Under the pieces are notes generated by a model, which ran no database searches, was not told the DNA's origin, and saw nothing but the letters and a program-made list of their open reading frames with translations. From the NCBI GenBank assembly GCA_963666055.2, contig CAXWPH010000013.1, forward strand, positions 15,406 through 79,405: DNA of 64,000 nucleotides, in the 5' to 3' direction. This DNA is from Acidobacteriota bacterium. Its GTDB lineage: Bacteria; Acidobacteriota; UBA890; WLXD01. This document shows, in pieces, positions 17,957 to 50,813 of this stretch (positions are counted from its first letter, which is position 1; every line of letters begins with the position of its first letter). Made by a program: the position numbers and the translations under genes.

Positions 17957-18190
17957 GTGACCGAGCCGGCAAAGGTCCTCCGTCACCCTAACTCGCCGGT
18001 GGAGCATCTCGTCGACGCGCAGGCGGTCGCCAACTGGCTCGGTGTGGAAGCGAACACGGTCCAGAAGTGGGCCTCGAAGCGGAAGATTCCACATCGGAAG
18101 ATCAACGGCGTGGTCCGATACATGATGTCTGAGGTAGTCTCCTGGGCACTTGAGGATTGCGACAGGCCGGTCAGGGGGGCAGGTCGATGA
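17957..18190 (+). CDS. Excisionase-like HTH protein
   Basis: VANWLGVEANTVQKWASKRKIPHRKING; paralog of 49254-49502; overlaps the integrase start. Confidence 0.8.
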   Translation: MTEPAKVLRHPNSPVEHLVDAQAVANWLGVEANTVQKWASKRKIPHRKINGVVRYMMSEVVSWALEDCDRPVRGAGR

Positions 18191-30431: not shown

Positions 30432-33155
30432 CTACCGGTCCGTCGGCACGAGCCGCTTCAGCTCCTCGAACCAGTTGGTGACCAGCGTCACATGGCCGCT
30501 GCCGGTCTGGCTCTGGCCGGCGTCGGGGAACATCACGAATTGCTGACCGTCGCCCGTCACGTCGTAGTCGGCATAACAACATCCACTGTTGATAGTCATT
30601 CCGTCTGGCCCGCCAAGAAAACTCCCCTCGAAAAGCTGCTCGGCTCTGCTGTAGGTGAAGGAATCACCTTCCGTCTCTACAGCAACCACCATGATCCCTG
30701 TATCGGTGCGGTAGAACAGCTCCCGACCGTCGGCTGACCATCTGGGCTGGCCGCCACCGCTGCTGGAGAGCTGCCACTTGCCCGGTCCAGGAGGATAGGG
30801 CCGGACATAGACTTCATTGCTTCCCGACTCGTAGGAGTCGTAAGCGATCCAGCGACCGTCCGGTGAGAAAGCCGACCACGCGTCGGTAGCATCGGTATTC
30901 ACAAAGACCTCCGGCTCCCGATCCTCCTCAAGCGGCAACACCAAAATGTCCCAGCCGGTCGTCTGTGGGTGATTCTCGCCGTATACGAGAAACCTGCCAT
31001 CCGCAGACCACGAATACAGCCACTGTCCCCTGTCGCTCTCTGTCAGCCGCTCCACAGTTCCCGATCCGTCGGCACGAGTCCGATAGATGTTCGTCGCTCC
31101 GTCGCGGTTCGACATGAATGCGAGAAACTGCCCGTCCGGTGACCAAACAGGTTCGTCGTCGTTCGCTTCATCAAACGTCAGCCTTGTCGGCACACCCCGC
31201 TGGATGTCATAGATCCATACGTCAGCGTTTTCGTTGACCAAGGCGCGCACGGCTAGCCGTGTGCCGCCCGGCGACAACCGAGGAGAACTGTAGGAGCCAG
31301 GCTCATCCCACAGCGGTGTCGCGTTGCCCTGCCGGTCTACCCATGCGACGGGATATGCCTCCTGAAGAACGGCCTCGCTCAGATACGCCAGCATTCCTGT
31401 ACTTGAGAAGCTGAACTGTGCGACAACCCCCCCCCAACCAAAGGTGGCAAGCCCCTGCACGATGGGTACCGGCTAGCCCTTCACCTCCAGCTCTCCCAGA
31501 TCAAACGCGACAGCAAACAGGGTTCCCTGGTTGTGATAGACGAGATGCCCCGTAGGTACGTAACGTCCTTGTCCGCCTTGCTGCACGACCCGTCGTTGTC
31601 TCGTCTCTAGATCCAGCACTTCGATGGCAGACGAATACGCTCCTGGCTCCCCGGCCAAGGAGGAGAACAGCACCGACTTGCCGTCAGGCAGCACCTGCGG
31701 GTCGTTGTGCCAGAGTTCCCCTTGATCGAGTTGAGTCAATGGTTCCGGTTCTCCCCCGCTGGCGGACACGCGGGAGAGGCCGGAGAAGGAGCCGATGATG
31801 ATCGTGTCGTCCGCCCCCCAGCTTCCCGTCAGGGTGCCAGAACCGAAGGAACTGATAGTCAGGGGGGTGCCGCCTATGACGGGGACTATCTTCAGTTCCG
31901 CGCCGCTGAAAAAACCTATCCACTGGCCGTCCGGTGAGAAGAATGGTGCCAATACAGAGCCAGAGACCAAGCGAACGCCCGCTAGCTGATCGAGCGAGCG
32001 AACGTATAGCTCCCTTCGGTCTACTCCGATACCCACGATGTAGACGATCTGTGTGCCATCCGGCGATAGGACAACTCCCTCAGAAGCCAAGCTAAGATCA
32101 TCATCGGCCAGCCTCACCTCCAGGTGCATGGGGGACGCAGGTGGCTGATGATTGTGATCTGTCAGGGTCCACGTCAAAAAGGTTGCCGCTGCGGCGATGG
32201 CGACGCCGAGACCGGCTGCCACAGGCATGGGGACGTAACGCCACCAAGACGGCTTTGCAGCCTCACCCGAGCCAACCGTCAGACCGAGGCCACCATCTAG
32301 GTCGTTGATGACGTAGACGATGCCGATTCGCGCATCAGCGATGTCGTGAAGACGGTCACGCGGTTCCTTCGTAAGACACCGGTCGAGAAGTCGTCGTAAT
32401 GCTCTCGGGGTAGCCGCCGGGAGCACTGCCCAGTCCGGCTCCGCCCTGAGAATCGCCGCCATGGTGTCGCTGACTGTCTTACCGTCGAAGGCGCGCTTGC
32501 CCACCAGCATCTCGTACAGCACGCAGCCGAACGACCAGATATCGCTACGCTTATCGACGGGCTCCCCCCGTGCCTGCTCCGGGCTCATGTAGGGAGCCGT
32601 GCCCATGATCACGCCGGTGCCTGTGGCGGCCATCATCGTGGGCGACTGGCTAAGGCCGGACGACGGCTCACTGCCTGCCGCTTCGTAGGCTTTGGCCAGC
32701 CCGAAGTCGAGCACCTTGACGGTGCCATCGGGTGCAACCTGGACGTTGGCGGGCTTCAAATCACGATGGATGACACCAGCCTCGTGAGCGGCTTCCAGTG
32801 CCAGGGCGATCCGTCGGGCGATCTCCAGTGCCTCATCTACGCCGATGCGGCCACTGGACTTGATGCGATCCGCGAGGTTGTCGCCCTCCACCAACTCCAT
32901 GGCGATGAACCGAACACCGTCCGATTCCTCGAAGCCGAAGATCGTGGCGATGTTGGGGTGGTTCAGTGAGGCGAGCAGCTTGGCTTCGCGCTCGAACCGG
33001 GCTAGTCGGTTGGCGTCGCTAGCAAAGTCCTCCGGCAGCACCTTGATGGCGACATCACGATCCAGCGTCGTATCGCGTGCTCGATACACCTGCCCCATGC
33101 CGCCTTCACCGAGCGGGGCGAGGATCTCGTAGTGCCCGAGCGTCTTGCCGATCAT
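30432..33155 (-). pseudogene. Ser/Thr kinase-TM-PD40 protein with an in-frame TAG at 31475-31473
   Basis: ORFs 31473..33155 and 30432..31460 share a frame (GGC TAG CCG GTA CCC ATC GTG; the paralog reads GSPIPV). Confidence 0.88.
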
Positions 33156-35854
33156 CAGGAGCCGCCCGTGGGCACTAGCCGGTTCAATTCCTCAAACCAG
33201 TTGAGCACAACGTTGAGTCGTGTGCTGGGTGCCGCGCCCCCGGTCTCATCACTACCAGCGGGCACCGTCACGAGGAACCTCTGGCCATCGGCGGTGACAT
33301 CGAAGTTGGACAGGGCCTGCATGACGATGTCCGAGACTTCGACAGGGTCGGATGCGGAAAACGACTCCAAATCCACTTCCGCAACGAGGATGCCTGGGCT
33401 GTTCCAGGATTCGTAGTAAATCTCCCTTCCATCCCGCGACCAGCGAGGCCACCAACCACCACGGGTACTCGTAGAGACCGGAAATGTCCGACCGCTCGAT
33501 ACCTCCCGCACGTACACCTCGAATTGCCCGGTCTCGTCGGAATGAAAGGCGAAGAAGCGACCGTCCGGCGAGAAACTGGCCCAAAACTCACTGGCGGCGG
33601 TATCGACGTGTATTTCCGTATCACCTGTATCGAGAGCCAGTATCCCCAGGTCGATCTGATTTTCGGGCCCGCTGCCAAACAGCAGCATCTCACCGTCGTC
33701 CGAGATCGATATCGGGTACACGTCAGCCTCTGTATCCAACACCAGCTCGGCGTCGAGACTCCGGTCAGCCCGGCGCTTGAAGATGTCGTTGTTGCCGCCC
33801 CGATCCGACCTGAAGAAGACCCACTGTCCATCGGGCGACCAAACGGGCACTTCGTTGTTGCCCTCCGTGTTCAGCAGCACCTGGCTGCCCCCTCGTTCGA
33901 TCTCGTAGATCCAGATGTCCCAGTCCCCATCATTTCCCTGGATTTGGAGCGCGATGCGCTGGTCATCCGGCGAGAGGCCCAAGTACTGAGACCGACGGGG
34001 CTCGAAGGGCAGCGGCTCGACTTGGCCGTCACGATCCACCCAGACGAGTAGGGAACTGCCCGAAGCGCCGCCATTCCTCATGTGATAGACGAGCATCCCG
34101 GTCTCGGAGAAGTCGAACGAGACCCCGCCTTCAACGTCGGCGGCGAGGTTCTCGACCACGGGTATCGGCGAGCCGGTCGTCTCCAGGGTATCGAGGTCGA
34201 AGGGCACCGCGAACAACGCTCCGGCGTTTGAATACACCAGATGGCCCGTTGGCACGTATCGGCCGTAGGTGCCGCCCTGGTGCACGACCTGGCGCTCGCC
34301 GGTCTCGAGATCTACGACCTCGAGGTTGGCCCTGTCGAAACCTCCGGTCTCGGTCGAAGTGAATAGCACTGCCTTTCCGCCGGGTAAGAACTGGGGCCAG
34401 CGGTGGCTGCGCTCGCCCTCTGAAAGCTCGGTGAGCAGTCCCGGCTCACCTTCGACAGCCGACACGAGAAACAGGCCGCTGTTGACGTTGGGTGTGAAGA
34501 CGATCGTATCGTCGGGCCCCCAATCCGCACCTCGGCTCCTGTCCACCGGCGCGATCGACTGCGGGGTGCCTCCAGTTACGGACGCCTTTTTCAGCTCCGA
34601 AATGGTGACGAACCCTACCCACTGCCCGTCGGGCGAGAAGAAGGGATGGTACGGCGCACCCAGGATGGTTGCCGAGGACGCGAGTGTCGTCGAGTCCTGC
34701 TGGTCGAGAGCGCGAAGGTACAGCGTGCTTCCACCGTCCGGGTCACCCTCGACGTAGGCAACGCGCCGTCCATCGGGCGATAGCACGACTGCGGAGCCGG
34801 GCCCACTCAGGATCGTGTCGACGAGGGGGTCGAGCTGCAGGCGGATGGTGTTTCCGGGCTCCGGTTGCATTGCCCACCAGGTGGCAAGAACCGCCAGAAG
34901 GGCGCTGGCCACAGCTATCGGGACGCCCAGCTTCCACGAGATGCCGCGTGTCGTTTCCACGGCGACAGGGGGTGTCGGAAGCGCCGCTCCTGACTCCACG
35001 TCTGTACCGAGCGCCTGTATGTCGACGACCAGATCGCCGGCTGTCTGGTAACGCTTGGCCGGCTCCTTCGCGAGTGCCTTGCGGACGATCCTCTGCAACT
35101 CTATCGGCAACGACCGGTCGATCTCCCCAATCGCTGGCGGCTCATCGGACAGGATGTGCGCCAAGGTCTCGTGGACGTTCTTCCCGCCGAATGCCTGCCT
35201 GCCCGTGACCATCTCATAGAGCAAACAGCCGAAGGCGAACAGGTCGGCTCGATGGTCGATCTTGTCGGAGCCTTCCACCTGCTCTGGGGCCATGTAGCCG
35301 GCGGTGCCCATCACCTGACCGGCCACCGTGCCCATCATCGTGGGTGATTGAGTTGCACCGCCCGGTGAGCCTGCCGCCACCTCGGTCAGCTTCGCCAGGC
35401 CGAAGTCCAGCACCTTGGCGTGGCCCTCCTTGGTGACGAAGATGTTCTCCGGCTTCAGATCCCGGTGGATGATGCCGGCGGCGTGAGCAGCAGCCAGCGC
35501 CTCGGCGATCTCGGTGGCTAATCCGAGCGCCTTCTTGAGCGGCAGCGCACCCTTGCCCAGCGGCTCCCGAAGTGTGTCTCCCTCCAGGTACTCCTGCACC
35601 ATGAAGTGGGTGTCGCCTTCGGTGCCGATATCGTGAACGACCGCGATGTGCGGGTGGTTCAGCGCGGCGGCAGCGCGGGCCTCCTGCTCGAAGCGGGCCA
35701 GGCGCTCGGGGTCAGAGGCGAACTCGGCGGGCAGCACCTTGATGGCTACCTTGCGACCCAGGCGGGTGTCCTGGGCCAGGTACACCTCTCCCATGCCGCC
35801 CGCACCGAGCTGCTCGGTGATCTCGTAGGGGCCTAGTTTGGTGCCGGGTTCCAT
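33155..35854 (-). CDS. Intact Ser/Thr kinase-TM-PD40/TolB beta-propeller protein
   Basis: 899 aa; all kinase motifs, TM, PD40 repeats, [12 protein letters not shown] tail. Confidence 0.93.
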
Positions 35855-36025
35855 GGCGCTTCCGATGCGGGGTAGGGGAGTGCCTGAAGCCTATCTCTGG
35901 GGCAGTCGAGGGTCCACGGGGCAGGCAGGATGGCACCTGCTCTCAGACGACCTCCATGCCCACGCCAGGGGGCGGGGGTATCAGGAATCCCGCCGGTCGG
36001 TAACCCGCTCAGAGACGACCCTGAG

Positions 36026-37231: not shown

Positions 37232-37297
37232 TCAAAAGACTCCGTATGAACGAGAAACGGGGTTGAGTTTTCATCGGCCACGATCGGATCGTCGCGC

Positions 37298-37948
37298 CTA
37301 TCCGAGGCCCGCAAGGGTTTGCCCTAAACGGATCACCGGCAAGATGAACACCCGTAAGGCGCCGAGCCATATCAGCGCGATCAGGATGAAGAAGCCGTAT
37401 GGCTGTATGGAGCGGTAGAACCGCGCCACCGAGCCGGACAGCGTCGCCGAGAGGATCCACGAGCCGTCCAGCGGCGGAATCGGGATCATGTTGAAGGCGG
37501 CCAGCAGCAAATTGATCAGCAAGGAAGCCACCAGCAACTGCAGGACTGGCAGAAACACGCTTGCTGAGACAAGGCCGACGAGCACTTCCTGGTTGGCACG
37601 CATCAAACGTATCAAGAACACGCAAATCACCGCTAAGAGCACGTTGCTCAGCGGCCCCGCGGCGGCAATCCAGGCGTGATCTCGCTTCGGACGGAGCAGG
37701 TTGGCCGTATTGACCGGCACCGGCTTCGCAGCACCGAACGGTGGCAGCCCGGCGAAGATCATCATGGCCGGGAACAAGATCGTCATTATCGGATCGATAT
37801 GGGCGAGCGGGTTCATGGTCACTCGGCCAAGCATCCGTGCCGTCGGGTCGCCGAGTCGGTCGGCCGACCAGGCGTGCGCCGACTCGTGAAACGAGATCGC
37901 GAACAGCAGCGCGACGATCTGGGTGACGATGAGGCCGGCTCCCTCCAT
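37298..37948 (-). CDS. Site-2 protease (M50 family)
   Basis: HESAH, AGPLSN, FNMIPIPPLDG. Confidence 0.92.
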   Translation of the reverse strand: MEGAGLIVTQIVALLFAISFHESAHAWSADRLGDPTARMLGRVTMNPLAHIDPIMTILFPAMMIFAGLPPFGAAKPVPVNTANLLRPKRDHAWIAAAGPLSNVLLAVICVFLIRLMRANQEVLVGLVSASVFLPVLQLLVASLLINLLLAAFNMIPIPPLDGSWILSATLSGSVARFYRSIQPYGFFILIALIWLGALRVFILPVIRLGQTLAGLG

Positions 37949-38109
37949 AGTGTGATGCTATCCCGCCGGTCTGGTCGGTGCTAGAACGTCGCGGATCGAC
38001 CCGGCGAGGTTGATGCCGACGACCTCGGCCAATTCCGCCTCTGAGGCCCGGCGCACCCCGGCAAGGGACCCGAACCTACGAAGCAAAGCGCGTTGGCGCT
38101 TCGGTCCGA

Positions 38110-38400
38110 GTCGAACCAGTTGATGACCAGCGTCACCGTGCCACTGCTGATCTGGCGTTGGTTAGTGTCAGGGAACATCACGAAACGCTGACCGTCGGCA
38201 GCAACGTCGGCGTCAGAGGCAAACTCGGCAGGCAGCACCTTGATGGCGACATCACGATCCAGCGTCGTATCGCGTGCTCGGTACACCTGCCCCATGCCGC
38301 CTTCACCGAGCGGGGCGAGGATCTCGTAGTGGCCTAGTTTGGTGCCGGGTTCCATGGCGCTCCCGAAGCATGGTGGCTGAGCGCATGAAGCGTATCGTCA
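38110..38400 (-). pseudogene. Collapsed kinase gene: leader plus first ~48 codons joined in frame to ~35 near-terminal codons
   Basis: [10 protein letters not shown]...[11 protein letters not shown]|[14 protein letters not shown]...VTLVINWFD. Confidence 0.88.
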
Positions 38401-38636
38401 GGCCATGCGAAGGTCCACGGGGCGCGAAGCCACCCGCTATACGTCAGTCCGCACATCAGAGATGCTCCGTCGGATCCACGGCGGAGAGCGTCTGGGAGTT
38501 GTCCCGCAGCGAATCCCTTGAGGAGCCCAACGATCGGTGGTTGTATCCAGGCGTCCCGATACTGACCAAGCCAAGAGCCTGACTCGACCAGGGTTATCTC
38601 GGAAATCCCGGGAGGTAGACCGTGGCTGGAGGATCG

Positions 38637-40436
38637 ATGACGGAAACCAGGCCCGGGCTGTGGATCCTTTTGCTGGCGAGCCTGAGCGTATCGGCTTGTC
38701 AGCCGTCAACGCAGGACGCGTCGCCAGGCGATGCTGCCAGCCCTGCCGATTTGGTGCTGCAGGGCGGTAAGTTCTTTACCGTCGACGAAGCCCAGGTCTG
38801 GGCTGAAGCCGTCGCGATCAAGGACGGCAGGTTCGTCTACGTAGGCGACAACGCTGGTGCACAGAGCTTCGTTGGCCCCGATACCGATCGCCATGACCTC
38901 GGCGGCAAGCTGGCAATTCCCGGTCTAGTGGATTCCCATACACACCCAGGTCTGATGGGGCGGGAGACGGCCGGGTTTACCGCGGTCCCCGTGGGTGGTG
39001 GTCCCAGAGGGACGCTGCCCAGGGACGGGAACAAGGAGGAGATCCTCGCTGCGGTGGAGGCGTATGCCCAAGCCAACCTGGACCTTGCCTGGATCGAGAT
39101 GGGTAGCTGGTCCGGGGATCTGAACGGCGTCGCGGGCCCACATAGGAGAGATTTGGATCGCGTCGTACCGGATCGACCAGTGATGTTAGGAAGCGTCCAT
39201 AGCCTTTGGGTCAATTCCGTGGCGCTTGAGATGATGGGGGTCGACAGCACCACACCCGATCCGGTACCCGGTCTTGCATACTTCGTACGAGATGCCGATG
39301 GTGAGCCTACCGGCTGGATCAAGGAATATGCCATCTGGCCCTATGCGCAGCACCTTACTGACGTTGACCTGGAGTCCAACAAGGAGGGTATTGTCACCTT
39401 CTTGGAGTACCTGTCACGCCACGGCGTTACCTCACTCTTTGACGCTGGCAACTTCAACTACCACGATCTCACGTACTCGTTCCTGGCTGAGCTAGAGGCG
39501 GCCGGTCGTCTGCCGGTTCGCTACGAGGGCAGCTATCACATCTTCTTGCCCGATCATGTGCCCGATGCGATCGATGAGCTACAGCGGCTGCGCCGCACCT
39601 ACGGCAGCGAACGTCTACGGTTCAATACCATCATGATTCACTTGGACGGCACCAATGAGATTCGTACCGGCGCGGTGCTCGAGCCGTACAGCGATGACCC
39701 GGGCAACCGGGGCACGACCCTGCTCGACACCGAGGAACTGCGTGACTTCATCGTGCAGCTTCACGAAGCCAGGATCGATCTGCACATGCACATCGTGGGC
39801 GACCGGGGCGTGCGCATCGCACTGGATGCGGTGGAAGCAGCGCGCAGGTCGGTCGACGGCGAACTGTATCCACGCGTCACCCTGTGTGAGCTGGACATCA
39901 TCGATACGGCTGACTACCCCCGTTTCAAACAGCTGGGTGTCATTGCCAACTACACGCCCCAGTGGCACGGCCTGGGAAACCGACTGCCGTTGACCGCCGG
40001 TACCCTTGGCCCCCGCTTCGAAAGAATGTTGCTGGTGCAACCGTTACTGGATGACGGCGCGGTGGTGGCCTTCTCCAGCGGCGTGACATCGTTCAGGGCA
40101 ATGGAGCGGGCCAACCCTTACCTGGGGATGCAGATCGGCCACAACCGCCAATACCATCAACAAGGTGAGGCTGCGCCGATAAGGCTGCCGATGAGCGAAC
40201 GCCTGGACCTGGAGGATCTGGTCCAGGGATATACCTTGAGCGGCGCCTATCAGTTGCGTATGGAGGAGCAGCTTGGCTCAATCGAGGTAGGCAAGCTCGC
40301 CGACCTGGTCGTGTTGGATCGCAACCTGTTCGAAATCGATCGCTACGAGATCCACGAGGTTCGACCCGAAGCGGTCATCATGGACGGCGAGATCATCAGG
40401 GGAAGCTTAGACGGTGGCGCGGAGATGAGGCCATAG
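38637..40436 (+). CDS. Amidohydrolase 3 (YtcJ-like) lipoprotein
   Basis: VSAC lipobox, PGLVDSHTH, HMHIVGD, GSIEVGKLADLVVLD. Confidence 0.88.
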   Translation: MTETRPGLWILLLASLSVSACQPSTQDASPGDAASPADLVLQGGKFFTVDEAQVWAEAVAIKDGRFVYVGDNAGAQSFVGPDTDRHDLGGKLAIPGLVDSHTHPGLMGRETAGFTAVPVGGGPRGTLPRDGNKEEILAAVEAYAQANLDLAWIEMGSWSGDLNGVAGPHRRDLDRVVPDRPVMLGSVHSLWVNSVALEMMGVDSTTPDPVPGLAYFVRDADGEPTGWIKEYAIWPYAQHLTDVDLESNKEGIVTFLEYLSRHGVTSLFDAGNFNYHDLTYSFLAELEAAGRLPVRYEGSYHIFLPDHVPDAIDELQRLRRTYGSERLRFNTIMIHLDGTNEIRTGAVLEPYSDDPGNRGTTLLDTEELRDFIVQLHEARIDLHMHIVGDRGVRIALDAVEAARRSVDGELYPRVTLCELDIIDTADYPRFKQLGVIANYTPQWHGLGNRLPLTAGTLGPRFERMLLVQPLLDDGAVVAFSSGVTSFRAMERANPYLGMQIGHNRQYHQQGEAAPIRLPMSERLDLEDLVQGYTLSGAYQLRMEEQLGSIEVGKLADLVVLDRNLFEIDRYEIHEVRPEAVIMDGEIIRGSLDGGAEMRP

Positions 40437-40524
40437 CGGCAGCTGCGGCTTCGTGCGCGCGTGGGCACAGTTCGGAACGTCACACTAGTCGGGTGACGCT
40501 CCTGCGCGACGATAGCCAACGGCG

Positions 40525-40662
40525 CTACGGGTCCGTCGGCACGAGCCGCTTCAGCTCGTCGAACCAGTTGGTGACCAGCGTCACCATGCCCGTCTGGGTG
40601 TCCTGGCCGGGGTCGGGGAACATCACGAACCGCTGACCGTCACCCGTCACGTCGTAGTCTGA
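40525..40662 (-). repeat. Kinase-family 3' end fragment ([16 protein letters not shown]...[14 protein letters not shown])
   Basis: Closely matches the 3' end of 30432-33155. Confidence 0.9.
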
Positions 40663-40681
40663 CGCGTTCAGACCGGCGACT

Positions 40682-41822
40682 TCACCTCGGCTCCCCCCCC
40701 CCCGCTTCGGCGGTCTCACGTTCCTGCGCCCGCGCCCCGAGAAGCACATTGGACAGCGCGTAGTTGGCTTCGTGGCAGGCGTATTCGTATACCAGATCAG
40801 GCAGTGCCTTGAACGGCACCTGAGCAGTCCATGGCCTCGAGTAGAAGGCGGGATCGTCGATGGTGAACTCGTAGTTGATGGTGTGCTCATCGACGCGCGT
40901 GAGGCGTTCGGTCACCTTGAAATCTTCCGACCCGCCAGCAAAGTTAGTGTTTCCGTTGAGCTGCTGGCGCGGCAGATTTGTCGTCTCCACCACCAGCGTA
41001 TCTCCTTCCCAACGGCCCCACGAGTCGCCCAACCACGGACGGATGTGCGCTGGCAGCGGCGTAGGCTCGCCCAACTTGATGATGCGAGCGTCGTGCACCA
41101 TTTCGGTCATGACCATCACGTGATCGGCGGTCTGAACGATGGTGTAGTTGTTGTTGTAGAAGTAGTTGGGGATCATCGGCGGGCCGGCGTTGGAGCCGAA
41201 CGAAAGTAAGCAGCGCAAGGCAAGCGAGAGATTCTCCGGATTGTCGTAATTCGCCAAACTGGGCCCGCTGTTGCGCCAGCTCGCTGCGCGCCTTTTCTCC
41301 CTCGGGGCTCAACGGTGGGATACGCCCGTCCGGCGGGTCCACCACCAACGAGCTGCGTGGCTCGCCGTTCCAGATCGCCACCCGATCGCCCGGGTCCAAG
41401 TAGAAGATGTTGTAGGCACCGGCTCCCCCGAAGGGCGGATCATAGAGCGCCGAGATCTTATCGTAGAGCGCCGAGGCCTCATTCTCGAGCGAATCGCCCC
41501 AGGGTACCCCCCCCACCGCCGGTGCCTCACGGTCGGGGTCGCTGTCCGCCAAGTGGGTATCGATGAACGTCGCTCGGTCGCCCTCGAGGGCAGCGACTTG
41601 TTCCGGCGCCATCACACGCTCGTATCCCGGCGGACGCTCGATCCGCGTCATCGTCGCGTTGGTCCAGTTACCCTGCAGATCCGGATGGCCGTCGGGTGTC
41701 CGTGGCAGGACCCAGGCCTCGGTGGCGGCGTCCTGTGTCTGCGTCAGGGCCGGCAACGCCAGGCCAAGCGCCAGCACGGCACAAGCGAGGCCCGCTAGCG
41801 CGCTGCGAGTCGCGATCCTCAT
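40682..41822 (-). pseudogene. Secreted hypothetical protein (PDLQGNW...GDSWGRWEGDTLVVET...EYACHE family), frameshift ~41255
   Basis: Two overlapping ORFs join into one recognisable conserved protein. Confidence 0.75.
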
Positions 41823-41834
41823 CTGTTTCCCCTA

Positions 41835-42050
41835 TTAACCAATCGGGTTCTTGCGCAGATGCCCGTACAGTAGCTCCTCGACGAACTCCACGCACTTGAA
41901 CTGACCGAGGCGGGCGTCCGGGTCGATATTGCGGTACAACGGCAGGCGGATCGTCCACGGACGCGAGAACGTCTCGGGATCTTCGATAGTGGCCTCGTAC
42001 CAGATGTCGTCGGGGCTCGCCATCTCGTACCGCTCGGTTACCGTCATCGC
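41835..42050 (-). pseudogene. 3' fragment of a related secreted protein
   Basis: TERY...YEATIEDPETFSRPW; 5' part replaced by a kinase fragment. Confidence 0.65.
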
Positions 42051-42052
42051 CG

Positions 42053-42220
42053 CACCTTGATGGCTACCTTGCGGCCCAGGCGCGTGTCCTGCGCCAGGTA
42101 CACCTCGCCCATGCCGCCAGCGCCGAGCTGCTCGCTGATCTCGTAGGGGCCTAGTTTGGTGCCGGGGTCCATGGCGCTGCCGATGCGGGGTGGGTGAGCG
42201 CCTGAAGCCTATCGCCAGAG
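42053..42220 (-). repeat. Kinase-family leader plus first 40 codons ([10 protein letters not shown]...VAIKV)
   Basis: Near-identical to the starts at 12557 and 35854. Confidence 0.9.
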
Positions 42221-42495
42221 CTTGCGAGCGTCCAAGGGAGAGGACAGGGGCCGGGCAGATCGGACCGCGCAGAAAGGGCGAGTAGCCCCAACGGTCACGA
42301 TTTCGAACACCACGCGGAGTACGTGGCGCGGTTCGCGCAGGTTGGCTAGGAGCTACGGCTCACTCCAGGTCTCCCGGCCGCGCCTTGAGGCCGAAGTCGG
42401 CTTCAACGCGATCGTACCAGGCGTCGTCATCGAGGGCGCCCCAGTCGGCCCAGGCTGGCTAAGCGCCTGGCCGGCCTGCGGGCGAAGGCTGCCCA

Positions 42496-43081
42496 ATGAG
42501 AAGCCAGCTCATCGCCCTAAAGATGGACCTTCTGTCAGGACAGGTCAGCTATCGGTGCAAGTGCAGGCGTATCGTCCGGGTTCACGCCTCGAACCTATCT
42601 ACCGGAGCGGTCGACTACTGCGGCTGCGGTCATTTGCGGCTCGACCTCAGTCAGGCTCAGGTCAACGGACACCGACAGATGGCCGGTCTCCCGGAGCTCG
42701 AGGAGTAGGCCCATGAATACGCTCGAGATCATCGACGGCGACACCCTCGTCGTTCGAGACGAGGACGGGGCCGAGCTCGGCCGGATTCAACGACACGAAG
42801 CGGTTACGGTGCGCGACGCTGACGGGAACGTGCTCACCAGGGCGGACGTCACTGCGTTCGCGCCCGGCCACCCCGCCCCACGCGGCGAGAATCGCGAGTC
42901 CGTAGCGATCACCCTGTGGCCACGGACCCGGCAAGCCGCCAACCTGATAGACTCGCTGCTCCAGAACAACGCCGTGCTGCTCATCCAGATCGAGACGGCC
43001 GACGGGTTCGTGCTTGACCTGGGGGTACGCGCTGGGGGCCTGAGGGCTACGCGTGGCTGGTTCGCCGCTACCGTCTGGTGA
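42496..43081 (+). CDS. Two small phage-like hypothetical genes (42496-42708 with CKC/CGC motif; 42713-43081)
   Basis: GAGGAG RBS before 42713; Cys motif similar to phage Zn-binding domains. Confidence 0.45.
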
Positions 43082-43227
43082 GGGGCGCATGAGCGACGAG
43101 GAGCGCATCGGCATCCAGTGGGGAAGTTTTTCTCTGCCACCATTAATCGCCCGGCTGCACGCTCTCACGTGGTGAGAGCCGACCTATTCCGCTAGGCTGA
43201 GCGAAGCCCTGGCGGCAGGCGAATCCT

Positions 43228-43878
43228 ATGCAGAACCAGCTGACGGAAGTAGCGACGAGTGAGCTACAACGCCACGTAGAGCGCCTACACGACTGCGCAG
43301 CGACCTGCAGCGCCGCAGTTGAGGTCCATGATCGCTTCGGTAGCGAGACGTTATGGCATGGCGTCGTCCACGTCTTCGACCTCACATACCATCCCACGGC
43401 TGACCTTTGCTACGCCTGGTCGTCACCCGTGGCCGGATCTCGGAAGCGGCGTTTCTACGCGGTTCTACACACCGAGCAGGTGGACTCGCCTGCGAAAGCG
43501 GTTCGGGCTGCGATTGTCAAAGACTTCAAGAGAGAGAGTCAGAACCCTTCCGGAATGGGCTTCGTCGACGGACGGCACTACTCGGCCTACGTGGTGGAGG
43601 TTCGTCGCCTCAAGCGGGTGGGCGACCTCGATGGCGCGAAGGAGCTTCTCCTGCGCCTGGTGGACGCCTCAGAGGCCGAGGCCGAGGGCGGAGGTTGGGG
43701 GGTTGATCCGTGGTACTGCGAGCAGCTGGCCATCATCTACCAGAAGAAGAAGCAGCCAGCCGACGAGCTCGCGATCCTCGAGCGGTACGAACGACAAGCG
43801 AAGGCCCCGGGGATGGTTTCAGAGAGGCTGGCTAGGCGCCTAGCAGAGCTGCGCGCCAAGGCCCGAAAGAGCGAATGA
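43228..43878 (+). CDS. Two-domain hypothetical protein; C-terminal helical domain duplicated in 44362-44748
   Basis: GRHYSAY...LKR.GDLDGAKELLLRLVDA...PWY.EQLA.IY shared. Confidence 0.65.
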   Translation: MQNQLTEVATSELQRHVERLHDCAATCSAAVEVHDRFGSETLWHGVVHVFDLTYHPTADLCYAWSSPVAGSRKRRFYAVLHTEQVDSPAKAVRAAIVKDFKRESQNPSGMGFVDGRHYSAYVVEVRRLKRVGDLDGAKELLLRLVDASEAEAEGGGWGVDPWYCEQLAIIYQKKKQPADELAILERYERQAKAPGMVSERLARRLAELRAKARKSE

Positions 43879-44361
43879 CCCCGACCACTTACCGAATCCT
43901 CTACCCGGGAGCACGAATAGCCACGTGACCGACGACGAAGGGGACCAAAAGCAAGAGCGCCCCCCGAACACGAACGACTCTTCTTGCGGTCGTTCGTCTG
44001 TGTCAGCGCTGACGCCGCGACCCGCCGCTGTGCCTTTGTACTCTTCGGTCGACGCTCCGCGGTGCCTTCGTGTTCTTCGGATCGCGCAAGACCCTGCCGG
44101 CTTTCGGCGCCACCTTCCTCGATGTTCTCTTGTTCTTCGCCAACTTGCCTCCCGTCGTCTTGCATGCGCGGAATGCCCCTCCCGATTCTACCAGTCGGCT
44201 CCGAAACCCTTCGGAAGAGCGGTCGCGACGCCCCCCCCCTCGCAAATCGCCCGGCCGCTCTCCCGTGGTGAGAGCCGATCTATTCCGCTAGGCTGAGCAG
44301 CCTTTACGGAGATCCGCCCCTTCCGGAACCCGCGACCGGCGATCTGTATGGCCAGGACTGA

Positions 44362-44748
44362 TTGACCATGACCCCGACCACCTACCGAGTTCGCCACGGA
44401 TCCACCAACAAGGAACTCGACGTCAAGCCGAGCTTCGTCGCTGGCGGGCACTACTCGGCCTACGCGGAGGTTCGTCACCTCAAGCGGATGGGCGACCTCG
44501 ATGGCGCCAAGGAGCTTCTCCTGCGCCTGGTGGACGCCACAGAGGGCGAGGCCGCCGCCGAGGGCGAAGGCTGCGGGGTTGATCCGTGGTACTACGAGCA
44601 GCTTGCAATGATCTACCGGAAGAAGAAGCAGTCAGCCGATGAGCTCGCGATCCTCGAGCGGTACGAACGACAAGCGAAGGTCCCTGGGGCCGTTCCAGAG
44701 AGGCTGGCTAATCGCCTGGCCGGCCTGCGACCCAAGGCGGACGAGTGA
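44362..44748 (+). CDS. Paralog of the C-terminal domain of 43228-43878
   Basis: High nucleotide similarity over ~310 bp. Confidence 0.6.
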   Translation: MTMTPTTYRVRHGSTNKELDVKPSFVAGGHYSAYAEVRHLKRMGDLDGAKELLLRLVDATEGEAAAEGEGCGVDPWYYEQLAMIYRKKKQSADELAILERYERQAKVPGAVPERLANRLAGLRPKADE

Positions 44749-45098
44749 GAGGCCGCAGCAGCGCCACCCCCCGCCCACTCGCCTACCCCCGCTGCCAGTT
44801 CGGCAACTACCTCGGCGAGTTGATCGACGCGCACCCTACCTCGAGGCCCACGCTAGCCAAGCGAATCGGCGTGTCTCCGGGGAACCTCAGCAACTACCGC
44901 CACGGGCGCTACCTCCCGCCGGACCGCAAGGCTATCGGTGTGATCGCTCGAGTCCTGGCGCCGAGCAGGGCAAAGCAGGTGGAGATCCGAGCCGAGCTCA
45001 CGCGCCGCTGTATCGCCGACCTGCTTGATGCGCACCTGCGCGCGGGCGGTGTGTCGCTGGATGAGGCGCGGTTGGCGATTCACGATCTGGGGGAGTGA
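44745..45098 (+). CDS. XRE-like HTH protein
   Basis: TLAKRIGVSPGNLSNYRHGRYLP. Confidence 0.6.
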   Translation: MRGRSSATPRPLAYPRCQFGNYLGELIDAHPTSRPTLAKRIGVSPGNLSNYRHGRYLPPDRKAIGVIARVLAPSRAKQVEIRAELTRRCIADLLDAHLRAGGVSLDEARLAIHDLGE

Positions 45099-45462
45099 GA
45101 CCGTCATGACGCCACGTGCTGGGCGGGCGGTTCAGGATACGGCGGGGGCACGGAGCCGTAGGTAGAGGAACCCGGAGGCTACCGCCGCTCCTTCTTCCGC
45201 AGCTCCCACCACTCCCGGATGAACTTCACCAGCTTGCCATTGAGAATCGGCTGGTCGCGCGTCGTCCTTGTTTCGACCCGAAGCCCGACTAGCTGTGTTG
45301 TTTGGGCTCGCCGACGCCCGGTACAATAAGAAGCGGCCCGGGAGCTGCGAACTCCACGGGCCGCAAAACGAACTGCAGTAGTGGGACGGTACGTCCTCGC
45401 CGGCCGCCGGTCAATTATGGTCGGCTCCGCGCGTCCACTGGGGTGGGCTGCTGCGGTCCTCA

Positions 45463-45813
45463 ATGCCTGTAAGTCCGAGCGGCCTTCGTGCTGCGGCAGG
45501 GCGAGGAGATGAAGTCATGGGTGCTTTCGTGACCCAACAGCCGAGCGTATTCACACGCGACGGCATCGAAGCGCTGAGTCCAAACCAGCCCGGTGTGTAC
45601 GGGCTATACCGCGGGGACCGATGGGTCTATGTCGGCCAGAGTGAAGACGTTCGGCGACGCTTGCTGGAGCATCTCGGCGGCGACAACTCCTGCATCACAG
45701 GCAGCTGGCCGTCACACTTCGTAGCCGAACTGGTCCACGGTGGCCACGCTGCACGTGAGGCGCGAGAGCGCGTCCTAATCAACGAGTGCCAGCCGCTCTG
45801 CAACGTGGCGTAG
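45463..45813 (+). CDS. Small GIY-YIG nuclease
   Basis: PGVYGLY...VYVGQSEDVRRRL..H...ERVLI...PLCN; true start likely the internal ATG (MGAF). Confidence 0.75.
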   Translation: MPVSPSGLRAAAGRGDEVMGAFVTQQPSVFTRDGIEALSPNQPGVYGLYRGDRWVYVGQSEDVRRRLLEHLGGDNSCITGSWPSHFVAELVHGGHAAREARERVLINECQPLCNVA

Positions 45814-46513
45814 CCCTAGTGGCTGCAGCCTGAACCTGTACCCTCCAGGCAGCCGGTGACTCGATCGAAGTAGTAGTCTCGGCCGCCTACGGTCAACTGT
45901 GTGTAGCGTCGGCCGACGCGCACGTCTAGCTGCTGACCGGTGACCTGGTCGCGGTAACTGATCGGGCGGATGGCCCCCGGCGCACCGAGCCGATGCAGTG
46001 CCGCGCAGAACGCGTCGCGGACGCGGTCCCGAAACCAGTTGGTCCGCCCGCACTTCAGGGCAGCTGGTTGCGGCGGGTGAGGGTGGCTGAACGGTAACAC
46101 CGTGGCGTCAGACATCGCGCCCTCCACGCTAGCGTTCACCCCCAACGCCGAGTCTACAACGAGCGAGCTCCTTGCGGAGCTTGAAGTAGATATTCGGATC
46201 CACGCCCAGCAGCGCCCCGAGCATCGCCAGCTTCAGCGCCCTCGCAAATCGCCCGGCTGCGCTCTCCCGTGGTGAGAGCCGATCTATTCCGCTAGGCTGA
46301 GCGAAGCCCGGGCGGCAGGCTGAAGGGCATCCCAAACGAGCGAGGTGCGCGATGGATCTTGAACAGCAAGTTGAGCGGCTGAAGCGAGACAACCGGAGGC
46401 TAAAGATTGCCCTCGGCGCGGTGGCGGCGTTGCTGGTGGCGGCTGTGCTGGTGGGCGTGTGATGCTGCAGGAGGCTCTGACGCAGACCGTGCTGGAGTAG
46501 GCGGAGATAGTCA

Positions 46514-46815
46514 TCATCGCAGCATCCGCTTGAGATCGATCTGCTTTCCCAGCCGCTGAACCAATCCATGTGAAGCTTCGTTGAGCGACTGCTCCAAGAA
46601 CTTCGGGCCGCTTACTGTTCCGCCTTCCACTTCCCTCAGCTCGTGGACGGCAATCGCGTAGTCGAGTCCTGCGCCTACGCCGATCTCGAGCGATATCTCT
46701 TTGCCGTTCACTTTCGGCGAGCCGATCTGGTGGCTGTCGCGCAGTGCTCCGGTGTCGACTGGTGTTCTCTCCTTGGACGCCTCGACGACTCCCTCTGCCT
46801 CGACGCGTAGAGCGC
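46514..46815 (-). pseudogene. HK97 gp10-like phage morphogenesis protein remnant
   Basis: Manual translation: EASKERTPVDTGALRDS...DYAIAVHE...PKFLEQ; no start, upstream stop. Confidence 0.6.
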
Positions 46816-47539
46816 TCTAGACCTGATCGCACCGCCGACGGCCGGACGAGCCTGGACGTCGTTGACCGGCTACCCGCATCTCGTTCCCGCTCAACCCCTG
46901 GACACCACGGCCGGGAAAGGCCATCGTGTGCCTGCTACGGGAATCCCCACCCCCAAAGCGCTCGGGCCGAAGCCGTTTCTGCTTCGGCCCGAACTGTTTC
47001 TGGTGATCCCACCAACTGCTCTCGAGCTCGGTACGCCTTCCGGTGCTCCTGGTGGTGGCCTCCTAGTGCCCGCCGCTGCCGCCCGGAGATGGCTCGGGAA
47101 AAACCACCCCCAAGGCGGCTGGCGACGTGGTCCCCGCGACCGCCGGCCTGGCCGGATGAACCTAACCGTGGCGCGGAGATGGTCGTTCATGGCCGTAGCT
47201 CCTGCCGCTCGGCGCGCTCGTCGGCCAACGCGGCCTGGAATGCGGCTTGTGAACTCGACTGAAACTCGGCGGGCCGTGGTGGTGTCACACGATGGGACCC
47301 TCGGCGCAGAACGCGAAGCTCGATTACCCCTAGAAACAAGGGCCTCAAGCGGCAAACCCGGCGGCGCCGAGGAGACCGCTGGGTGTGACAGAATCGGACA
47401 CCACGGAGCCGGGCGCCGCTCCTCAGAAATGTGAAGTTTTGTGAGGTCCCTGCGCTGTGGCTACGGCCTCTGAAATGTCTACATTTGTCAACAGGCGGCA
47501 GGTCCCTCGAGAGGGCGCCTTCTTCGGGTCGACGGCTTC

Positions 47540-47688
47540 GAGGAAGATTGGACCCGCTTCCGCGGCTTCGGATTCGACTGGTTCATCGAGAACGACGGCA
47601 ACTACGTGAAGCTCCTCGAGGGCAAGTACCGGCCCGACGTGCGGCCATCCGTTGATGCTTCGAAGAAACTCCGAATCCCGAGGGGCTA
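47540..47688 (+). pseudogene. C-terminal remnant of a phage replication initiator
   Basis: Manual translation GFDWFIENDGNYVKLLEGKY, typical of phage initiator C-termini, directly upstream of a DnaB gene. Confidence 0.55.
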
Positions 47689-47692
47689 GCCG

Positions 47693-48999
47693 GTGGTCGA
47701 GCGCGCGCTCCCGAACGACACTTCCACTGAGCAGGCGATCCTCGCTGCCATCATCTTGAACCGAGAGGCGTGGCACGAGGCACAGGCTAAGCTGGAAGCC
47801 AACGACTTCTTTTCAGAGTCTCACCAGCTCGTATTCAAGGCGATGCAAGAGATCGGCGGCGTTCGTCGGGAGGCCATCGACACGGTGTCGATACTGGCCG
47901 AGCTGAAGCGGGTCGACAGCTTGGAACGCGCTGGCGGCCCAGCCTACATCTCGAACCTGATCGAGGGCTTCCCGATGCGAGCCAACGTGCCGCAGTTGGC
48001 CAGGGTCGTGCGCGAATATTCCCTGAGGCGCCGGCTCATCCGCGTTACCAACACAGCGTTCCACCGGGCGATGGACACGCCGGACTGATGCGGAGGAGGC
48101 CATCGAGGAGGCTATCGAGGATCTGCGGTTGTTGCTGTCGCGAGCTGCCGGTGCCAGGGAACCGGAGCTGCGGGGTTCAGCGCTCCTGCTCGCGAGCCTG
48201 GAGCGCGGCGATCGAGTGCCGCTGGGATGGGGCCGAAACTGGACCGGCGCATGCGTGGGGGCTGCCCAGGGGCACGGTGATAACCGTGGGGGCGAAGGGC
48301 GCGGTGGGCAAGACACCGTTCGCACTACAGACCGCGGAGCGGATCCTCATGAGCCGTCCAGCGGCGCAAGTGGCGTTCTTCAACCTGGAGATGCCCGAAG
48401 AGGAAATCGTCCGTCGGCAGATCATGGCCTTCTGTCGCGTGACCGACTCTGAGGCCGCTGACCTCGTGCGAGGCGGTGCTGACAGACCGGTGGAGATGGG
48501 CCTGTCGCTTGCCGAGTACGACGCCATGATGGAGCGGTTCCATATGTTCCGCTCTCAACGGACGATCAGGCAGATCGAATCGGCTGTGGCGTCGGTACCC
48601 GGCGAGGTGGATCTCGTGATCGTGGACCACTTGGGTAAGCTCAAGGCTCCCGGAACTCGGGGCCCGTACGAACGGACATCGGTAGCGTTCGTCGATCTGC
48701 AAGCCATGGCCGCTGACCTCCGGGTCCCGGTGATGTTGCTTGCACACCTGAATCGCCACGACACGAAGGCGAAGAGTGATGAGGTCTTCGAGCATTCCTT
48801 CCGTGACAGCGGTGTGATCGAGGATCAATCCGACTACATCCTCGGACTGTGGCGGCCGAGATACGAAGAGGAAGTCGCCACGCGACCGCGAATGGCGCTG
48901 CTCCGAGGCAACCTGCTCAAGAACAAAGCCGGGCACTCGGCGCAGTTCGACTGGAATTTTGATCTGCCCTACCAGCGAATTGAGGAGGCGTCGGCATGA
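47693..48999 (+). pseudogene. DnaB-like replicative helicase, frameshifted around 48085-48250
   Basis: DnaB_N (PNDTSTEQAILAAII); GAVGKT, FFNLEM, VIVDHL, LAHLNR, RDSGVIEDQSD, KNK. Confidence 0.85.
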
Positions 49000-49253
49000 G
49001 CAAGCGCCGGCAGCAGGTCATCGCCAAGGTTCGCCAAGAACTCATGCGAGGAGTATCGAATCTCAAGAGACGAATTCCACGGGCAGCGCGGGGTGCAGAT
49101 CCGGCTGTGGAGACGAACCGGGACCGCGTACCCGTTCTTCGCAACGCCGCAACGAATCTCGCTGCCGCCGGCCATGGTGGCTGAGATCGTTGGAGCGCTG
49201 ATGATCGCTGCGGCGTTGGACGGCGAGGGTCTTGAAGATCAAGGGAAGTGTGC

Positions 49254-49502
49254 GTGAGCGATATCTTGCAGCATCCGAGCTCCCGCCTCAGTCTCTGGAA
49301 GCCAGAGGATGCTGCCGAGTTTCTGCAGTGCTCGCCGAAGACTGTTCGGCAATGGTGCGCGAAGCGTAAGATCCCGCATCGGAAAGTTGGCGGTCTCCTG
49401 CGCCTCGTGCCCGACGAAGTGAGAAAGTGGGTCCTAGTGGACTGCGATCGTCCGATCGAGATCGAGCACCGAAGTCGGTTCGGACGGCACACGAGGGTTT
49501 GA
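49254..49502 (+). CDS. Excisionase-like HTH protein
   Basis: EDAAEFLQCSPKTVRQWCAKRKIPHRKVG. Confidence 0.82.
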   Translation: MSDILQHPSSRLSLWKPEDAAEFLQCSPKTVRQWCAKRKIPHRKVGGLLRLVPDEVRKWVLVDCDRPIEIEHRSRFGRHTRV

Positions 49503-49503
49503 G

Positions 49504-50637
49504 TTGACGATCGAGAGCAAGCAGACCAAGTCAGGGGCACGCTACAGAGCCCGTGTCATGGTGGAGGGGCGACTCACGACCGGATCGTGGCACCAAGAGC
49601 AGAAGCTCGCCCGGCGCGACGAAGACGAGATCTACGGTGCGCTTCGCTCCGGTAGCTTCCACCGAACACATGGCCGCGATCGAATTCCCACCTTTGCCGA
49701 GGCGGCCGTCCACTACGTCGATGAGTGCCAACGGAAGGTCGATCAGCGCAAGGAGTCCGCGAGGACTCTCTACGACAAACGCTGCCAGTTGAACAAAGAG
49801 CTCATCCCGCGGTTCGGTGACTTCATGCTCGACGAGATCGACGCCTGGAAGGTGGAGTCGTTCCGACGCGACCTCCACAAGCGCGTCTCTGGTCCACGGG
49901 TGAACCGCTACCTGAGCACGTTGAGCGGCGTCTTCAAGCTCTACTCCAAGCTGCTCGGTACCAACCCCGTTCGAGCGGTGGACCGGTACGAAGAGACCGA
50001 AGATGGCTACTACGCCTTCACCGAGGAAGAGCTGCAGATTCTGCTCGCACACGCAGCGCAGGACTCGAATCCACATATCGAAGTGATCCTGCTGTCAGCC
50101 TTCGACACCCTCCTTCGAATTCGGAATCTCCTGGATCTGCGCCGCGATCAGATCGACTGGCGATGGCGCGACAGCAACGGCACGCTACGAGGCCTTGCCC
50201 ACGTTCCGTGGACGAAGAGCAAGAAGGCACTAGACGTTCCCCTGAGCCTCCGCGTGCGACGTGTCTGGCAGCAACATTTCCGAGCACTGGGTGAGTCCGA
50301 GTGGCTCTTCCCCAACGTGTCCAACACGGGGCCAGCCGACTACGGGTCTATCCGAGACGCCTCCAAACGCGTGCTCAAGGCTGCCGGAATGCCCGAGACC
50401 CTTCGGATCCATGACCTACGCCACGGCGGGGCGACAGAACTCATTCGAAGGGGCGCTCGGCGAGCAACGGTTCAGGCGCTTCTAGGCAACAAGACCCGCG
50501 TCATGACCGACAGGTACATCCATCTGACTGAGGATGACGCCGCCCAAGCACTGACGCATGGGCCTGGCGAGAAGCCCGGATTTGTCATCGATTTTGTCAT
50601 CGACGATGAAGACCGCGCGGCAGGGGAAGGAAAATGA
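49504..50637 (+). CDS. Tyrosine integrase
   Basis: LR (box I), K, HDLRH, LGN, RYIH; adjacent to the tRNA 3' end. Confidence 0.92.
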   Translation: MTIESKQTKSGARYRARVMVEGRLTTGSWHQEQKLARRDEDEIYGALRSGSFHRTHGRDRIPTFAEAAVHYVDECQRKVDQRKESARTLYDKRCQLNKELIPRFGDFMLDEIDAWKVESFRRDLHKRVSGPRVNRYLSTLSGVFKLYSKLLGTNPVRAVDRYEETEDGYYAFTEEELQILLAHAAQDSNPHIEVILLSAFDTLLRIRNLLDLRRDQIDWRWRDSNGTLRGLAHVPWTKSKKALDVPLSLRVRRVWQQHFRALGESEWLFPNVSNTGPADYGSIRDASKRVLKAAGMPETLRIHDLRHGGATELIRRGARRATVQALLGNKTRVMTDRYIHLTEDDAAQALTHGPGEKPGFVIDFVIDDEDRAAGEGK

Positions 50638-50684
50638 TGATCGCCCTCCCCTACCCTAAGTCTTTACAGGTCAGCGAGATAAAA

Positions 50685-50782
50685 TGGCGGAAGCGCCTGG
50701 GAATCGAACCCAGCAAGGACGCCTTCCGACGCCCCCCAACGGATTTGAAGTCCGCGAAGGCCACCAGACCCTATTCGCTTCC
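50685..50782 (-). tRNA. selC: tRNA-Sec (UCA)
   Basis: 98 nt: GGAAGCG...GGACTTCAAATCC anticodon arm, long variable arm, GGTTCGATTCC T-arm, CGCTTCCGCCA end. Confidence 0.93.
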
Positions 50783-50813
50783 GCTCGAATGTAACTCGTT
50801 TACAAGCAGCAAT

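Follow-up and report, generated by a model that had tools for sequence, protein, structure and literature searches.

Kinase-gene ends framing cargo genes in the islands of an Acidobacteriota genus

The window analysed here, a 64,000-nucleotide stretch of an Acidobacteriota genome (G000, a metagenome assembly), carries on its minus strand a filled shell, in which the beginning of one kinase gene and the end of another frame cargo genes. The shell comprises a putative promoter (P site) with 40 kinase codons, the last 71 codons of a gene X, a gene Y and the last 44 kinase codons, which end in a conserved tail (T site). This layout is real, the shell is one of approximately twelve in the genome, and such kinase-end shells are a variant of known processes. 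Their formation by stepwise deletions in a kinase-rich island, with mobility through recombination between near-identical kinase ends, is given an even chance of being the correct explanation.

The filled shell and its cargo

The P site of the shell (42192..42237, minus strand; one of 78 in the genome) is a predicted sigma-70-type promoter, with a -35 box at 42234-42229, a 17-nt spacer and a -10 box at 42211-42206. It precedes the first 40 codons (MDPGTK...VAIKV; 42053..42172, minus strand, ATG at 42172) of an A-type Ser/Thr kinase-PD40 gene, the frame of which runs on for two further codons to a TGA overlapping an in-frame ATG of the X stub. The 5' joint (42049..42055, minus strand) lies at 42052/42051 and shows 2-4 nt of microhomology, varying with the assumed donor allele. 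Beyond it lie, on the same strand, the last 71 codons of gene X, a predicted lipoprotein of no family (41835..42051, stop at 41837-41835), and the full length of gene Y, a predicted exported protein of no family (40682..41822, ATG at 41822, TGA at 40684-40682). Between Y and the closing part of a B-type kinase-PD40 gene, 44 codons with their stop (DYDVTGDGQRF...VPTDP and stop; 40525..40659, minus strand), lie 22 nt (40660..40681, minus strand). Candidate sources of these 22 nt are the opening codons of the gene that follows in the donor, DUF6152 in orthologs, the variable loop of the kinase tail, or both. The kinase tail includes the T core (40569-40525), one of 65 T sites in the genome. These coordinates bear out the order given in the first-pass annotation, with leader and kinase head joined abruptly to a 3' stub and the kinase tail resuming about 20 bp after the cargo. 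Upstream of the shell is a decayed T-spacer-P junction (42238..42362, minus strand), consisting of a degenerate kinase-tail end and a spacer of a family that follows T elsewhere (96% identity over 55 nt to the sequence that follows the T site at C15:1030455, and 76.5% over 81 nt to locus L146 of the congener genome G002).

Read support was drawn from short-read contigs of three public runs in two studies, one run possibly being the source sample. In 3/3 runs, drawn from both studies, a 229-nt contig (40555-40786) runs across the 3' joint, and in all three the bridging contigs have a G-run at 40693 three bases shorter than that of the assembly. None of the contig pieces listed for the three runs bridges 42052/42051, and the 5' joint therefore rests on the assembly. 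Of the checks and refuting conditions named in the first-pass annotation, the spanning of the junctions was seen, in contigs, for the 3' joint. Alignment with the operon in relatives gave short microhomology at the 5' joint and a stretch of ambiguous source, the 22 nt, at the 3' joint. An assembly chimera, with repeats joining unrelated contig pieces, would fit the unbridged 5' joint and the duplicated contig ends of a metagenome assembly, such as window positions 42751-50783, which are 99.9% identical to the start of contig C6 (1-8030) and represent either a real duplicate or an assembly overlap. This is considered highly improbable, since the 3' joint is bridged in every run, the cargo is a distinct 83.5% allele rather than the native copy, and the same shell architecture is found in G002, G003 and G004 among the congener genomes compared (G001-G004). 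Within the neighbouring amidohydrolase gene (39544-40221), contigs of runs X2 and X3 carry variant letters, pointing to related copies or strains in those samples.

The cargo (1.37 kb) aligns over its whole length, at 83.5% identity, to an intact operon on another contig (G000:C12:404482-405861). This native operon is ordered PQQ beta-propeller gene, X, Y and DUF6152 gene, with the intact X ortholog (locus L001) lying between the PQQ beta-propeller gene and Y; it faces two DUF6644 genes and has one close match in each of G001-G004. While the native G000 operon and the G002 copy share 92.4% identity, the window cargo reaches 83.5% with either of them and groups outside the clade that they form. 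It is therefore probably xenologous, with an unsampled sister species as donor, and the earlier reading of a chunk of a foreign operon is supported to that extent. The dN/dS values of 0.09-0.12 at dS 0.60-0.70 (0.116 at dS 0.60 against the native copy) indicate that the divergence accumulated under selection. A recent copy of the native operon is ruled out by the identity and dS values, and an old duplicate long kept functional is a less probable alternative. The first-pass annotation also took the donor segment to be cut mid-gene, which holds for the 5' end, where X is truncated, and not for the 3' end, which lies at or just past the Y stop codon.

Gene Y, which had been read as a full secreted-protein gene, contains one extra base (+1 frameshift) at 41251 relative to five congener orthologs and is split into ORFs of 292 aa and 191 aa. 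Contigs of 3/3 runs (two studies) cover base 41251 and agree with the assembly, so that the frameshift is not an assembly error. Neither X nor Y has a Pfam or NCBIfam match, their designation as secreted is a by-eye call from hydrophobic N-termini, the closest named relatives of Y occur in Acidobacteriota and Gemmatimonadota genomes, and the Atlas neighbours of the cargo proteins are unnamed clusters at 0.97-0.98. The cargo does lie behind a promoter-like site with the sigma-70 key bases intact, in line with its earlier placement under the kinase promoter. However, as it consists of a stub and a frameshifted gene, useful expression is unlikely, and this copy of the shell is probably a dead end, a non-functional capture in decay.

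The parent genes encode a Hanks-type Ser/Thr kinase domain with PD40 repeats (PF00069, 162 bits; PF07676, 84 bits) and fall below the cut-off of all 25 NCBIfam models listed. An anti-phage role was considered and set aside, as the PADLOC hits cover the kinase domain only and were taken as no support. Head and tail of the shell come from different kinase subfamilies, A and B. The head is A-type and resembles the first gene of an intact tandem in the window (33155-35854). The tail motif was found at thirteen places in G000 and 60 fetched regions of relatives, and where a kinase head lies approximately 2.55 kb upstream, this head is B-type (6/6). The reference unit (30432..35919, minus strand) consists of P, kinase A (899 aa), kinase B (split into ORFs of 560 and 342 aa) and T, with 5458 nt from P to T, and intact P-A-B-T units span 5429-5458 nt. 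Given the A-type head and B-type tail, the shell is not a single gene lacking 2.5 kb. The replacement of about 2.5 kb of kinase interior proposed in the first-pass annotation must accordingly be revised: a single parent must have been an A+B tandem of about 5.45 kb, of which about 5.1 kb was lost if in one event, or else the pieces derive from separate units. In the assembly, many near-full-length kinases are split by apparent frameshifts, at 30432-33155 (kinase B of the window) and at other loci.

Kinase ends across the genome

Matrix scans of G000 at a threshold score of 22 (best score in 2 Mb of shuffled DNA, 3) gave 149 hits, from which two A-type tails and four sites in a duplicated part of contig C8 were subtracted to leave 78 P and 65 T sites. 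The genus thus carries an enlarged Ser/Thr kinase-PD40 family in islands rich in tRNA fragments. Most of its copies survive as a short head behind P or a short tail, and P and T are close to identical across kinases and species that have otherwise diverged. The stub counts, which include the C8 duplicates, comprise 57 P stubs (median 136 nt; 46/57 of at most 260 nt) and 56 T stubs (median 69 nt; 53/56 of at most 160 nt). The inner joints range from 39 to 2450 nt for P and from 28 to 1165 nt for T, a spread by which a fixed, site-specific inner joint is ruled out. Stub joints are variable, with short or no microhomology; where a close source copy exists it amounts by eye to approximately 0-8 nt, with many of the 25 joints displayed having a distant or no usable source. 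Deletions and homology-facilitated illegitimate recombination would leave the same signature.

Eighty-seven neighbouring pairs of sites lie within 6.5 kb of each other, and 83 of these are on the same strand (PT 27, TP 21, PP 21 and TT 14). By eye, the 27 PT pairs were sorted into eleven intact units, twelve filled shells, one empty shell and three of mixed type. Alternation of P and T does not exceed chance (48/83 against 41.3 expected, p=0.085), and shells as a privileged P-T pairing are thus unsupported. The distance from P to T is at least 1012 nt in all 27 pairs, and the T-to-P gaps are below 700 nt in 14/21 cases, with common spacer families. A conserved T-to-P spacer of about 200 nt, as at C6:265982-266178, C10:13208-13406, C15:790819-791020 and C6:291697-291874, contains a 7-bp inverted repeat around 9 nt; nearly all copies adjoin T or P, and it is possibly a recombination or operator site. 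Another repeat, of 140 nt, occurs genome-wide in more than 100 copies of approximately 85-94% identity (e.g. C15:1120363-1120502); it often starts right after a stop codon, seems in some cases to be paired into 280-nt units and is REP- or MITE-like.

The P motif occurs in 5/5 and the T motif in 4/5 genomes of the genus, and neither was found in six family members outside it (0/6). In G000, P and T sites are concentrated in 12.7% of the sequence, and the genes beside them are mostly catabolic (101/156 called non-kinase genes scanned), including amidohydrolases, sulfatases, peptidases and oxidases. At positions 8305-10836 of locus L117 (contig C10), an 843-aa ORF with a sulfatase domain starts with approximately 26 kinase codons, in frame and behind P, forming a head-cargo fusion.

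The left edge of P is sharp and coincides with the -35-like box. The T, A and T of the -10 box and the T and G of the -35 box are invariant in 78/78 copies, as is one further base beyond these five positions, which are taken to match the key bases of the sigma-70 consensus; most spacer positions vary. Although the matrix was built from these same 78 copies, their typical scores of 50-71 are far above the threshold, so that copies with single changes would have been retained. This base conservation underlies the prediction of P as a sigma-70-type promoter; a strict sigma-70 consensus scan returned no site in 40300-42500. Where a P stub is followed by a gene within 300 nt, the first such gene runs in the same direction in 33/42 cases (p=0.0003 against one half), which is no excess over the genome-wide 68.5% for neighbouring genes (p=0.19).

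T corresponds to the last 15 codons of the kinase gene. Among seven full-length kinases that share 20-50% identity at the protein level, and in which silent changes in the propeller region are close to saturation, 176/188 synonymous codon pairs, which across seven kinases are not independent, are identical in the last 12 codons (94%), against 112/213, 118/189 and 87/188 in three catalytic motifs (46-62%). Identity to the majority T sequence is 96.2% for stubs and 95.6% for intact tails, and variation among the T stubs is biased to third codon positions (41 against 13 and 13). Furthermore, exact T 30-mers occur in G003 and G004, where the native operon is approximately 80% identical. The synonymous identity, the closeness of stubs to the majority sequence and the third-position variation suggest coding tails that have been homogenised or are young, and do not prove T to be a binding site.

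Formation and movement of shells

Relatives were compared over 60 regions picked around known hits rather than over whole genomes. The filled shell at locus L225 of G002 consists of a P stub, two genes and a T stub. In the orthologous region of G000 (C15:1397780-1406189), the same P stub and genes are followed by a further 5.5 kb, within which lies a second kinase unit headed by a P site; the last 383 nt of that kinase match the L225 stub. The direction would be one of loss in G002, with approximately 55 nt of filler at the joint. The first-pass annotation had named an origin of the two kinase pieces in separate events as the case against its reading, and this is what the L225 shell shows; for the shell of the window, one event or two would fit. 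Erosion of T between the same flanks was observed at C15:1042711 (263 nt in G000, 24 nt in G004) and at C2:373655 (1165 nt in G000, approximately 116 nt in G002), and at five loci among ten listed P pairs, the kinase behind a common upstream flank is intact in one genome and represented by a stub in the other. No allele of the window locus was found in G001-G004, its flanks matching only as separate modules, and the route for the window shell is therefore extrapolated from other shells.

Near-identical pieces of other G000 genes are also joined to stubs (C12:45562-46439 and C2:110916-112191), some of the G000 duplications perhaps being assembly effects. The former is represented in the window by an 878-nt copy (37232..38109, minus strand; 99.3% identity) of this segment with its peptidase M50 gene, cut mid-gene at both ends relative to its source and joined to a truncated kinase tail. 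This is a recent capture from the cell's own genes and a cleaner example than the shell. Adjoining it is a second P site with an empty shell (38109..38420, minus strand), in which 48 kinase codons are fused in frame to part of a B tail.

Such pieces are compatible with a one-step replacement, a form of the first-pass idea with a larger size. An A+B tandem would have lost about 5.1 kb in exchange for DNA from a sister species, through a pair of joints that were illegitimate or facilitated by homology. Head and tail, A and B, follow the order of the intact tandem, the xenologous cargo is cut mid-gene with 2-4 nt of microhomology at the 5' joint, a ComEC homologue is encoded in G000, and P and T are never less than 1012 nt apart in the 27 pairs. 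This route is nevertheless unlikely: P and T do not alternate above chance, with PP and TT pairs being common (21 and 14), a two-unit origin fits the L225 shell, and for both joints to lie so near the ends of a 5.4-kb target, at most 190 and 140 nt away, later erosion would be needed in any case.

Modules are also shared between species. In G003 and G004, modules are 93-96% identical across species where the native operon is at approximately 80%, and the amidohydrolase module beside the shell (38471..40467, plus strand) is 93-96% identical to copies in G002, G003 and G004. The same amidohydrolase gene fills a shell at L145 (G004:C2:2464263-2469253), where a P stub is followed by the reversed amidohydrolase gene, a 35-nt T stub, a spacer with direct repeats, a P-like leader and a kinase. 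The ends of shared non-kinase blocks fall within P/T windows in 26/344 cases, a five-fold excess over the 1.4% expected, while the remaining 318/344 breakpoints are away from P and T.

The setting is that of tRNA-integrating islands, with tRNA fragments and tyrosine integrases around the shell; G000 has 29 tyrosine recombinase matches, and tRNA fragments occur around P/T sites. The pieces lie upstream of P (8/77) and never downstream (0/77), and downstream of T (6/68) and never upstream (0/69), at rates above those for random island positions (53/4216) and other gene starts (12/668) and ends (28/684). Three T-att-P junctions (C7:12890-13341, C15:481040-481668 and C15:1314212-1314676) contain a tRNA piece with flanking direct repeats, presumably integrase arm sites. 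In the window, a satellite-like element (44745..50782, plus strand) with regulator, DnaB-like helicase, excisionase and tyrosine integrase genes lies at tRNA-Sec (50689-50782, minus strand), the only Rfam match at gathering scores in the whole window; the integrase, excisionase and DnaB-like genes are 5-8 kb from the shell. No 17-nt tRNA piece occurs within 350 nt outside P or T of the window shell, no 13-nt piece of tRNA-Sec elsewhere in the window, and among the tRNA-derived pieces searched no matching att pair bounds the shell. Elsewhere in the window, an ORF at 18187-19626 has the N-terminal part of a tyrosine integrase fused in frame to PD40 repeats and adjoins a DnaB/AAA gene (16055-17548), together forming a second, decayed satellite-like element.

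The T-att-P junctions would fit a dedicated mobile cassette, in which island integrases acting in trans would mobilise a minimal att-P...T-att element, or P and T would serve as the recognition sites, with the interior as a cargo slot. The sharp left edge of P, a 99.8% duplication starting within 3 nt of P (C6:315243 / C15:796586), the short T-to-P gaps with common spacer families (14/21) and the restriction of the motifs to the genus among the eleven genomes searched are in keeping with this. Against it, only 8/77 P and 6/68 T sites adjoin a tRNA piece, and these derive from several different tRNAs; the inner joints are not fixed; an attC-like fold is lacking in three 63-nt junctions, and the only intI is a broken remnant about 30 kb from the nearest site; and a 1045-nt insertion in G003 has a T stub in its interior instead of at its border. 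A cassette of this type is therefore distinctly improbable. A neutral graveyard, in which kinases arrive on tRNA-integrating islands and decay, leaving stubs that play no part as anchors, accords with the same islands and integrases, the dead cargo of the window, several stubs that end at what are taken to be IS ends, and the location of most shared-block breakpoints away from P/T. It too is quite improbable, as it does not account for invariant promoter bases in a set composed mostly of stubs, 94% synonymous identity limited to the tail of otherwise saturated kinases, the five-fold excess of block ends at P/T, or the exact T 30-mers in G003 and G004. A retro-mechanism, such as a retroelement or diversity-generating retroelement, was rejected on the basis that there is no RVT_1 match (genome 95.7% complete) and that the copies begin at the -35 box, upstream of any transcription start.

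Under the favoured explanation of stepwise deletion and shuffling, we infer that deletions removing kinase interiors would bring neighbouring island genes behind P or before T, and that erosion would stop at the outer ends because the promoter, and possibly also att arms next to T, are under selection. P and T would then act as homology anchors, allowing P-cargo and cargo-T modules to move between islands and species, and recombination at both would keep the ends alike. This is consistent with the variable stubs, stepwise T erosion, intact and stub alleles between the same flanks and the two-unit L225 shell, as well as with the invariant P bases, homogenised T, cross-species modules and excess of breakpoints at P/T. 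The co-orientation behind P (33/42), tRNA-piece placement, ComEC, lack of a reverse transcriptase match and 29 tyrosine recombinase matches likewise agree with it. Points against it are the 318/344 breakpoints off P/T, co-orientation that matches the genomic background (p=0.19), and the filler and presumed direction of change at L225. The third-codon bias in T stubs is as compatible with recently copied coding tails as with ongoing conversion, and the persistence of T without an adjoining P or att is unaccounted for.

Comparison with known systems

Homology-facilitated illegitimate recombination during natural transformation combines a homologous anchor on one side with a short-microhomology joint on the other. 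The shells would resemble this in having an anchor and a short-microhomology joint in a ComEC-encoding genome; experiments have used single anchors, whereas up to approximately 140 natural anchors from one gene family would be available here. Pack-MULE-type internal-deletion derivatives of eukaryotic transposons have conserved ends around captured, often broken gene pieces. Kinase-end shells similarly have conserved ends framing broken gene pieces, but by eye P and T form no terminal inverted repeats, a dedicated transposase was not identified and the ends are often unpaired.

Integrons consist of intI, attI, attC and Pc elements and carry arrays of gene cassettes. Like these, the islands contain cargos of one or two genes arrayed between repeats, for the most part in the same orientation and behind a common promoter, but the kinase-end shells have neither a fixed crossover nor an attC-like fold, and G000 has no intact intI, on which grounds an integron reading was rejected. 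No match in G000 exceeds the TIGR02249 cut-off for integron integrases, the best match being a stop-containing remnant (C10:50422-50736). Three 63-nt T-P junctions gave folding z-scores of -0.04 to +0.83 and the window T region -0.8 to -1.0; a 108-nt junction does fold (z -2.1 to -2.6), but its two ends are unpaired. An intact integron integrase is present in G002 (L164; G002:C8:1214363-1215181), where the closest of the listed T sites mentioned lies approximately 17 kb away, and G004 has a partial match.

Tycheposons and PICI-like tRNA islands share with the present islands partial tRNAs, fragmented integrases, helicase modules and metabolic cargo, but the available text describes no repeated gene-end adapters (bioRxiv 10.1101/2020.12.28.424599), whereas here kinase ends punctuate the islands and mark some module borders; the window shell, unlike tycheposon-like elements, carries no integrase. 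Mobile promoters are similar in that one highly similar promoter stands before unrelated genes, as a promoter-like sequence does approximately 57 times in G000, but P brings with it a kinase stub of variable extent and is matched by a counterpart at the tail, and throughout the genus each genome has tens of copies. As far as the accessible part of the survey indicates, promoters with paralogous flanking coding sequence were excluded from it, and mostly pairs were found (PMC3575422). The genome of Candidatus Solibacter usitatus is likewise rich in both phage integrases and kinase paralogs; these paralogs are described as generally less than 50% identical and ancient, and the portion of the report available describes neither end stubs nor homogenised ends (PMC3174227).

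In a literature search conducted mostly outside subscription papers, no description of kinase-end stubs framing cargo was found. The window shell, a stub and a frameshifted gene, is a poor showcase, and it is the genus-wide pattern that is of interest. The ends of this kinase family may conceivably serve as universal adapters throughout the genus, with a portable promoter end and a tail end, near-identical across species, through which any gene located between or next to them could be expressed and exchanged among islands and species, although this proposition is doubtful. Since each event leaves a stub of known origin, promoter capture becomes countable in wild bacteria. Were the proposition correct, an expanded family of signalling genes would have given rise to tens of common promoter and homology blocks around which the flexible genome is organised, and foreign metabolic genes would find a promoter in place and could pass between species that differ by approximately 20% in DNA sequence. 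The adapters would then amount to an integron-like platform for gene capture without an integrase of its own, in which the divergent kinase bodies are one class of cargo.
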